DNA of 62,467 bases, counting the filler, from Platydemus manokwari (lineage: Eukaryota): NCBI GenBank assembly GCA_037951405.1. It is 6 parts of 6 records of this genome, joined end to end, with 100 filler letters (N's around TTAATTAATTAA, not from the genome) between each part and the next. Parts side by side here need not be neighbours in the genome. Positions count along the whole stretch, not along the records: positions 21,269 to 31,527 come from JBBMOY011153104.1; 5 more parts are not named here. One strand, given 5' to 3'. Positions within the stretch are counted from its first letter, which is position 1; the number at the start of each line of letters is the position of its first letter. Positions 23,565 through 26,110 of the stretch are shown here, one piece after another. The translations under genes and the position numbers were made by a program. The notes below the pieces were generated by a model. It saw only the letters and a list, made by a program, of their open reading frames with translations, searched no databases and was not told where the DNA came from.

Positions 23565-26110
23565 TTAACTTATTAATCCTATTCCTATACTATTCCACCT
23601 TGTTGGTTCTAAACTATGTTGCCAGCATTGATAATCATCAACCAAAATTCTCCAAATTTCCTCTTCCTTTCCATCATAATCATATTTAAATTCAATTTTT
23701 CGTGGAATAGTTTTCCACTTCACTATATATTTTTCCTGTGGTATTCCTGTTTGTTTAGATACCCATTTTATGAACCATTTAATTGATGCATTTCCACTTA
23801 TTCTAAATTCCTCTATTTCTTTCTTTCCTCTTATATTCACCTTTAGCTGATATACAGGTGCTGCTAATATCCACACCGGTAATTTTAGATTGTCCTTCTT
23901 ACTGGTAATTCTTTCATCCCATGTTCTAATGACTGCTTTTATTCTATTTTTCTTACAAGCACTTATTTGGTAATAATGTAATTGTTTTACACCATTCATG
24001 AATATTCCTTTTGATATTAATTCCAATGTTATTCATAATAGTGGTTCACTTTTCCTCATTAATTCTCCTACATTCACCTTATAATTCATTTCCCTAATTC
24101 CTTCTTTTTTAAATGGCCAAATCCTATCTATTTCGTATTTTAGATAATCAACTGTTGTCGTATCTTTTACTCTTACGGTCTTTGCTACTTCATTATTAGT
24201 ATTATCTATCATTTTTGCTTCTATTTTATTTTCTTGTTTAATTTCTTCTTAACATTTTATTATATTTATTTCATATTGATCCCAAGTTATTGATTTTGTT
24301 GTGTAATTTTGCTTTTCTGACTTGAAGTTTCCTTTTATTGAATTTATTTCATTCTCTTTAAATATGTCCCTTAATTTAACCTTATCCCCTATTTGTTCTT
24401 GATTATAGTAGATTGTTATTTTTACATTATCCCATTCTGTTTGGTCGATGTATTGTTCTTGTAATGCTTTTTTCACTGTTCTTATTGACCAATGTTTGTA
24501 TTTTAGCTCATTTCCCTTATCTGTTTATTTATTGGGTTCTATGTCTATTTTCACTATGTAATGTGTTAATTCCTCTTCTACTGGTGTTATTACTATTTAA
24601 TTTTTGTCTCTTTCTCTTAATTGATAATACCAGAATTGCATTTCGTTATCCATAATTTCCCATTTTCCTAACTCGATTTCAATTCTCAAACTATATTTTA
24701 TTTATAATTCTTTAGGTCTTTCTTTTTTCCATCTTATTACATATTTATCCGATCGCATTTCTTGTTGTTTGCCTACCCATCTTCTGAACCATTTTATTAG
24801 TGTACTCACATTAATCCTAAACTTTATTTTTTTCTGGATATCATGTATTTCTTTTTCTATTGTTATTTCTAACTCATAGACTGGATTTCCTTGTGGTCTT
24901 ACTGGTATTTTCCCATTATCCTTATCATTAACAGTTCCATACAATGCAATACCATACGTTTGCCTTAATGTATTTATGTTGTGTCTATTTTTCTGTCTCA
25001 TGTCATATTTTTCCCATAACATGTTATCATCCTTATGATTCTTTATTTCTCCAAACTCCTTATGAAATTTAGGTAATTCCTCAAGAAACTTGTCTATGTA
25101 TTCATTCTCATATTCCTATACATGGATGAAATGTTTGTATGTTACATGTAATCTTATCTTGGATTCATTTTCATTTAATCCTATCTCATTTCCTATGTTC
25201 ACTAATTCTTTTAGCAGTAGCTTTTTTAACCTTATATTTTTTTCCTCAATGATTTGGTCAACTTCCTTATATGGTAATATTCTTCGCTTCTTCATTTCTT
25301 TTAATGGTAGTAATTTTTCTATTAACTTGTTCTCTATGTCAATTCTTGTTTTCATTCCTTCTATTTCACTGTTGTTCTCACTATTATCTATTATTTCAAT
25401 GATATCCTCTATAACTGCTTCATTATTAACTACTTTGATATTATTCCCAACTACTTCATCCTTGTTAACTATTTCGATGTAAGTTTTAAATATTTCATTG
25501 CTATTTCCTATCTCTATTTCATTGTTATCCTCAATATCACTAACATACGCAGTGCTATTTTGAGGAGACTCTAAATTATCCGACAATTCGTACTCATTTA
25601 CACTGCCATTTCTACCCTCTTTATGAAATTCAGTATTCCAGTAATTACTTATTTCACTGTTATAGCCAGAATTATCCTCATTAGCATTGTCAACTTCATT
25701 ATCATCAATTAACTGCGGGACTTCATTGCGCTTATCATTATCAATTTCAATTTCCTCATTATCAACTTTGAATTCCACATTAGACTCTTCATTATTAACC
25801 ATTCGGGTGCAATTTAAATGGAATGACCTTCCGTGACCAAATTCTCTATTATCTCCCTACTTCTAATTTGCTTAAGTTCAACTATCTTTTCACTTGCCAT
25901 CATATGAATTTCCTTATTGTTTTCCTTATTAATCAGGATCATATTGTGCAAATCCTGTATCAATTAGGTAGTCCTTATCTCCTGCTTTATATAATATTAC
26001 CATGTCTTCTGCTACTATGTTATGTTTTTCCTCTAACTGTTGTGTTATTGTTTTCTTGAGTTTTCTTATATTGATGCATGCATGAATGGGAAAATATTTC
26101 ATATTCTTTT
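23565..26110 (-). pseudogene. Stop-interrupted polyprotein region with tandem ubiquitin-like domains and an acidic N/E-rich linker
   Basis: Two units align directly to each other (FRIN.ST.IKWFRRWVGKQ / FRISGNASIKWFIKWVSKQTGIP). Others show TVDYLKYEI..LISKG..L..YQI..N.I, a ubiquitin-like pattern. Confidence 0.6.

Follow-up and report, generated by a model that had tools for sequence, protein, structure and literature searches.

What the reading frame at this locus of Platydemus manokwari (assembly GCA_037951405.1) once encoded, and for what use, is the question addressed here: it carries a row of repeated units, predicted to be ubiquitin-like (UBL) domains, inside the polyprotein of a retroelement. 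The window, that is the whole stretch of 62,467 nucleotides that was analysed, consists of six contigs of about 10 kb each joined end to end, and the array lies on the contig at 21269-31527 (JBBMOY011153104.1). Since the six contigs are unrelated and joined only by artificial spacers, features on the two sides of a spacer are not neighbours. We found that the locus is a dead copy of a multi-copy, env-bearing retroelement, in which five consecutive units follow each other in the order A-B-C-A-B and a sixth, U0, stands apart upstream. In an active element, such an array may well have offered proteins of the host ubiquitin system a docking scaffold that could not itself be conjugated, a reading that we hold at about even strength.

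The first part of the answer comes from the reading frame. Between 23280 and 24884 the array frame on the minus strand has only 7 of its 535 codons as stops, which marks it as a former gene; the two remaining minus frames contain 90 and 54 stops and the plus frames 22-33. The original prediction had placed four consecutive units in this stop-interrupted frame and a fifth one upstream, and all of them are present where it put them (Table 1). Its account of the array was nevertheless incomplete, as it missed unit B2 directly downstream, so that the consecutive units number five, with the predicted upstream unit, now U0, in addition. All 15 pairs of the six units (A1, B1, C, A2, B2 and U0) were aligned and each was compared with 2000 shuffles. 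A1 and A2, which had been said to align end to end, do so with a score of 144 and 35 of 91 residues identical (maximum of the shuffles 58), and B1 and B2 with a score of 116 and 28 of 83 residues identical; in neither case did any of the 2000 shuffles score as high. The A-B pair was therefore duplicated within the element, and the array units are repeats that share a single former frame. At the DNA level, too, the two A-B blocks can be aligned, with a score of 190 where 300 shuffles reached 96 at most. Among the other 13 pairs, only A1 and C come near significance (28 of 2000 shuffles as high, p = 0.014), while the remaining 12, including all five that involve U0, are not significant.

The duplicates further tell how the block diverged. 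Over 170 aligned codons of the A-B duplicates, identity amounts to 0.56, 0.63 and 0.54 at codon positions 1, 2 and 3 (0.32, 0.33 and 0.39 by chance), and different codons are used for 20 of the 63 identical residues, a pattern compatible with divergence as protein. It speaks against giving this pattern much weight that positions 2 and 3 do not differ significantly in identity (p = 0.12) and that the alignment was made on protein. The C-terminal di-glycine that is the hallmark of type I conjugatable modifiers is absent from the ends of the array units, as had been predicted, and the sole GG in the 535-residue read-through is found near the start of B2. Lacking it, the array units would undergo neither conjugation nor ubiquitin-type cleavage.

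Is the fold ubiquitin-like? We consider a beta-grasp UBL fold of the array units probable, a judgement that takes in the literature precedent (PMC6431247) besides the sequence evidence. The latter comes mainly from a profile of the six units, which gave 40 matches at E ≤ 10 in the PDB; 30 of these are UBL proteins (26 of them by their listed name), including all of the top 17, and the best match, a designed ubiquitin variant, has an E-value of 5.5e-5. A control profile from six non-array stretches gave four matches in the PDB, none of them UBL. Against 25 natural ubiquitins, taken from 99 sequences, the six-unit profile reached a median of 8.2 bits, compared with a mean of 0.8 (standard deviation 1.0, maximum 6.4) for 452 shuffled and realigned nulls; leave-one-out sets of units in the same alignment mode scored 3.4-6.6 bits. 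Global pairwise tests, when combined, gave p = 0.025 for the six units versus 0.84 for six controls. As for single units, C matched the Pfam family PF13881 (Rad60-SLD_2) with an E-value of 0.0049 and 17.4 bits, below the cut-off of 23 (one of 12 pieces scanned), and U0 matched the Crinkler N-terminal domain (E 0.062, one of 19 pieces scanned), which we take to have a ubiquitin-like fold. The A1 score against a profile of natural ubiquitins was reached by 17 of 1000 shuffles.

A number of results weigh against this assignment. The unit limits were picked by eye with the UBL idea in mind, and the profile signal depends on the alignment used: other MAFFT modes gave 2.6-4.5 bits against ubiquitins, a five-unit alignment in a different register (A4) found no UBL protein among its three PDB matches, and profiles of the A-type or B-type units only gave no UBL match in the PDB. 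The best PDB matches of the six-unit profile are designed ubiquitin variants, natural proteins following at E 0.05-1.4. The comparison of the units with ubiquitin by hhalign has an E-value of 0.0038 at a low probability of 8.7%. Only A1 of the six units falls below p = 0.05 against the profile of natural ubiquitins, one control stretch scored so that 45 of 1000 shuffles were as high, and in an unbiased tile scan of the window A1 ranked fourth of 894 tiles, the array not being singled out. The ubiquitin pattern claimed for unit C is likewise weak when taken alone, its Pfam match staying below the cut-off and its score against natural ubiquitins being equalled by 245 of 1000 shuffles. The model of B2 contains a long helix at 61-72, and no beta-grasp protein was among the 50 matches listed by VIA-align for this low-confidence model.

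The remaining structural and search results are neutral or negative. AlphaFold modelled the whole array at a predicted local distance difference test (pLDDT) score of 30.8 and B2 at 53, with a predicted template modelling score of 0.40; the order strand-helix-strand-helix-strand in this low-confidence B2 model would be compatible with a beta-grasp. Foldseek returned 457 matches for it at E ≤ 10, and none of them reached E ≤ 0.001. The structure-based check that had been proposed thus turned up no beta-grasp match among those listed, and what stands of the idea of non-conjugatable UBL modules in a retroelement polyprotein is that it is likely, given the profile, the Pfam match and the missing GG, with the fold itself unconfirmed by structure prediction. 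Comparison of A-type with B-type profiles was not significant (probability 0.1%), and when the PDB was searched by phmmer with the array and with unit C, no relevant match came up. The units might instead belong to some other small alpha/beta repeat domain, with a Lys/Glu/Ile-rich pattern that scores against ubiquitin by accident; with the alignment dependence and the tile scan on one side and the shuffled nulls and control profile on the other, we regard this as unlikely.

Searches for relatives added little. No homologue of the array was detected among proteins of 294-937 or 938-2675 residues, hence no deep alignment of natural relatives could be built, and none of the env part among proteins of 2870-5000 residues; related loci were found neither in metagenome contigs nor in viral contigs. 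A phmmer search over 1.84 billion representatives returned one match (P0005), a tandem repeat 55 residues long with a single short motif in common, which was dismissed as chance. Separately, we noted 122 stretches of prokaryote-labelled contigs (L001-L122) with near-canonical ubiquitin, many without a GG end; some of these are polyubiquitin on tiny contigs and resemble contamination, and others are located within long contigs.

Is the array a part of the element or an unrelated insertion? The contigs of one public run that contains the stretch (X1) were used here. At 80% likeness 2298 of them map, 1043 being below 90% alike, and their summed depth, which is not equal to copy number, is 321-5850 in 19 bins of the element and 2037-4118 over the array, compared with 14-85 in 11 flanking bins. 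As the depth over the array is far above that of the flank, the array clearly belongs to a repeated family, like gag and env; the depth steps down, and single-copy contig sequence begins, at 27693. Against this, the run is possibly the window's own source, and none of the X1 contigs listed bridges array and env to show directly the co-inheritance in other copies that the original prediction asked about. Among 40 differences listed (964 more exist), the 11 in the array fall 6, 3 and 2 on codon positions 1, 2 and 3; the third position is not enriched, in line with a copy that decays neutrally. One X1 contig passes, without loss of register, from sequence like A2 to sequence like A1, a weak hint at exchange between units. 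No public RNA run containing the stretch was listed.

The rest of the element is arranged around the array on the minus strand (Table 1). Upstream of the gag-like part neither a capsid domain nor a long terminal repeat (LTR) was seen; the multi-copy sequence stops near 27690, and from about there as far as the end of the contig A is strongly over-represented on the minus strand (47.5% A). A CARD-like reading by eye of 25370-25100, within the helical stretch at 24990-25370 in the linker between U0 and A1, was dropped as it had no search support, the Cullin-2 match in Table 1 being the only PDB hint. Downstream, a charged linker separates the array from a frameshifted stretch with BH1- and BH2-like motifs, which were judged by eye against the consensus and are possibly BCL2-like; its short frameshifted pieces gave nothing from Pfam, PDB or Atlas. 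Inside this stretch we observed a tandem duplication of 101 nucleotides (22669-22837, 74% alike), and one X1 contig skips 101 nucleotides there. The env-like gene opens with a hydrophobic, signal-like segment from 22310, recognised by hydropathy, followed by a mononegavirus-type fusion glycoprotein; residues 41-191 of a 193-residue piece of it match Pfam PF24664 (Monjiviricetes_fusion) at E 9.2e-6 and 24.3 bits, the whole-protein cut-off being 27. No protease, reverse transcriptase or integrase was found between gag and env. With its stops, its frameshifts and its missing 5' part, the copy is dead and unable to make the array protein.

Table 1. Features of the element and of the window, with positions counted along the whole window
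Feature	Positions	Strand	Original prediction	Remarks
Five-unit array A1-B1-C-A2-B2	23304..24884	minus		one frame; likely ubiquitin-like units
Unit A1	24585..24884	minus	unit 1	~100 residues; ~20-residue insertion relative to ubiquitin in second half
Unit B1	24300..24572	minus	unit 2	~90 residues
Unit C	23910..24236	minus	unit 3	~109 residues; distantly A-like
Unit A2	23568..23861	minus	unit 4	
Unit B2	23304..23564	minus	missed	copy of B1; starts one base outside the reported interval
Unit U0	25890..26192	minus	upstream unit	separate; interrupted by stops and, near 25960, by a frameshift
Gag-like 3' part	26278..27657	minus		Asn/Arg-rich stretch, then charged coiled-coil-like stretch (by eye); no Pfam match
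Single degenerate Cys/His knuckle	26934-26893	minus		by eye, within gag-like part
Linker U0-A1	24885..25856	minus		acidic, Asn/Glu-rich, plus predicted helical stretch; best PDB hint Cullin-2, E 0.089
Possibly BCL2-like stretch	22388..22898	minus		frameshifted; BH1-like at 22546, BH2-like at ~22430, by eye
Env-like gene	21269..22412	minus		broken; cut by contig end at 21269
Artificial spacers (n = 5)	10953-11052, 21169-21268, 31528-31627, 41718-41817, 51136-51235			N44-TTAATTAATTAA-N44

Which known element does this resemble? Planarian Burro, or GYPSM1, elements are giant gypsy-like LTR retrotransposons with a polyprotein of about 4900-5100 residues, in which a Gag with two or three CCHC knuckles is accompanied by motifs of the Smc, MATH, BIR and ankyrin types, a Ubi2/SUMO-like motif (PF11976) is flanked by MATH and by a BCL2-like one, and the env, akin to the fusion proteins of mononegaviruses, is placed in frame between gag and pol (PMC6431247). 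Their N-terminal Gag includes a retrotrans_gag domain, PR-dUTPase-RT-RH-IN follow downstream of env, the elements exceed 30 kb with their LTRs, and the hosts are Dugesiidae or land planarians. The authors suggested that Burro elements are possibly proviruses interfering with apoptosis and ubiquitination (PMC6431247), and accessory domains of Burro1 are reported, at second hand and in an excerpt, to shield host cells from apoptosis, one accessory region being said to protect stem cells (PMC13465017). The element described here shares with them the order of Gag-like part with Cys/His knuckle (here by eye), coiled-coil-like stretch, ubiquitin/SUMO-like module, possibly BCL2-like stretch (here by eye) and mononegavirus-type env, as well as the high number of copies, decayed copies with stops and frameshifts having been described in one species (PMC6431247). 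Two features that typify Burro are found: a Ubi2/SUMO-like module, weak but above null, whose place upstream of env is read directly from the sequence, and an env of mononegavirus type. The missing pol between gag and env agrees with the Burro layout but is no proof of it.

The differences concern number and completeness. Five tandem units and a sixth one are present here, whereas the text of PMC6431247 names a Ubi2/SUMO-like motif without a count; the knuckle, a degenerate one, is single where Burro has two or three; and no Pfam match to MATH, BIR or ankyrin came from the 6.4 kb in view of this decayed and partial copy, read through over 27657-22680, although one described Burro member also has no MATH in its main open reading frame (PMC6431247). 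The element is therefore Burro-like in layout as far as the contig reaches, with membership unproven: because the contig ends inside env, before pol and LTRs, the BCL2-like stretch was called by eye, and neither MATH nor BIR nor ankyrin turned up, we do not file it as a Burro member. The claim that no such array was known in LTR elements was overstated, given that the Ubi2/SUMO-like motif ahead of the BCL2-like motif and env of planarian Burro elements is in print (PMC6431247). LTR polyproteins with a UBL module are already known, and the array expands this feature without being a new kind of system. Beyond that motif we found no tandem UBL array in print, in a comparison that covered the paper's text, and the array itself may still be undescribed.

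What would such a block do? One comparison is the C-terminal tail of USP7, whose integral UBL1-5 are laid out 2-1-2 and function in di-UBL units, according to an excerpt of PMC7419626. The likeness, as far as this excerpt goes, extends to five integral, non-conjugatable UBL domains, to the 2-1-2 layout and to low sequence similarity to ubiquitin. It differs in that the 2-1-2 order here arose by A-B duplication (34-38% identical) and that a catalytic domain is absent; USP7 families in Pfam gave no match for the array or its units, under a filter that drops matches above about E 0.1. The resemblance is likely an analogy and not a capture of USP7. The docking role is proposed by analogy with USP7-type UBL tails, which act in pairs for binding and regulation. 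If the array was part of a single long polyprotein of the Burro kind, Gag-accessory-Env(-Pol), it would lie upstream of the env signal-like segment and would consequently face the cytosol or the nucleus. There, paired UBL units would offer surfaces that bind or divert host deubiquitinases, ligases or proteasome receptors, and docking of these would protect the proteins of the element or the host cell, the array sharing its accessory block with the possibly BCL2-like motif. A bolder version, which we hold to be speculative and on the whole unlikely, is that Burro-type proviruses amplified a captured UBL domain into a decoy array of 2-1-2 layout, independently of USP7, which diverts host ubiquitin or SUMO machinery for counter-defence or for protection of the host, the number of units varying among members.

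The expanded and internally duplicated block shows that the accessory cassette of giant LTR elements keeps evolving, and its small UBL-like domains are candidates for partner testing. Should the block prove to bind factors of silencing or degradation, it would be one of the rare proteins by which a retroelement counters host defence.

The docking scaffold has to be weighed against other uses of the same units. They could be UBL domains that at present have no target in the host, derived from one captured domain that template switching multiplied and that was retained to keep Gag and Env apart as a folded spacer. The internal duplication, the great distance of the units from ubiquitin and, weakly, the X1 contig with the in-register switch would agree with this; yet the duplicates drifted apart to 34-38% identity without loss of frame over some 1.6 kb, codon position 2 lying furthest above chance, and the SUMO-like motif persists at the same position in Burro elements of two planarian genera (PMC6431247), so that we find a mere spacer rather improbable. 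Decoys of SUMO-dependent silencing had also been proposed. Such units would be SUMO mimics that jam the transcriptional silencing guided by PIWI-interacting RNAs (piRNAs) by soaking up proteins with SUMO-interacting motifs. In Drosophila SUMO links piRNA targeting with chromatin silencing, according to excerpts of two preprints (bioRxiv 10.1101/533091, 10.1101/2021.07.27.453956), SMEDWI-2, a PIWI protein of the nucleus, represses Burro1, as stated in an excerpt of PMC8532177, and the sole Pfam match of unit C is a SUMO-like-domain family. None of the 40 PDB matches of the six-unit profile is SUMO, however, ubiquitin variants, ubiquilin, ISG15 and NEDD8 being matched instead, and the word 'SUMO' does not occur in PMC8532177; this reading thus appears doubtful at best. 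ISG15 and other di-UBL modifiers and the integral UBL of ubiquilin type are natural matches of the profile (E 0.09-0.4, or 0.09-1.4 for ubiquilin-2, ISG15 and NEDD8 together), but their similarity is very remote, and the array differs from them in having no terminal GG and in lying within a mobile-element polyprotein. Finally, the suggestion that the units are processing signals for host deubiquitinases, modelled on cytopathic pestiviruses, in which host ubiquitin inserted as a ubiquitin-fold module into the viral-type polyprotein is cut behind by host ubiquitin C-terminal hydrolases (an excerpt of PMC8310069), is already largely refuted and barely credible, since the units here are distant from ubiquitin, whereas what pestiviruses carry is the host's own ubiquitin, and none of them ends in GG.

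The other contigs carry features of their own. The window is AT-rich (GC 23-37%), without tRNA genes, and animal-type genes were recognised in it by eye. A CDK11 orthologue is encoded at 55642-56883 on the minus strand (413 stop-free codons, E 3e-124). The C2H2 zinc-finger frame at 6057-7034, minus strand, resembles the C-terminal fingers of the MECOM/PRDM16 group, and the frame at 18976-19461, minus strand, was taken by eye as eIF5A-like from a motif; as a query against prokaryotic genomes the latter gave no match. Seven-transmembrane receptor-like frames at 51633-53538 (plus), a single frame of 327 residues at 59222-60205 (plus) with two similar helix-turn-helix-like repeats, and a fragment resembling a non-LTR reverse transcriptase at 48922-49479 (minus) were likewise noted by eye. 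On a different contig from the array, a decayed gypsy-type pol remnant at 11756-13733, minus strand, matches RT_RNaseH (E 1.8e-4) and Integrase_H2C2 (E 1.8e-12) and is flanked by two direct repeats of 112 nucleotides, 87% alike. A second decayed gag-like, Asn/Arg-rich run, seen by eye at 14450-15400 on the plus strand, has no Pfam match for its first part; direct repeats of 111 nucleotides lie at 11190 and 15470.
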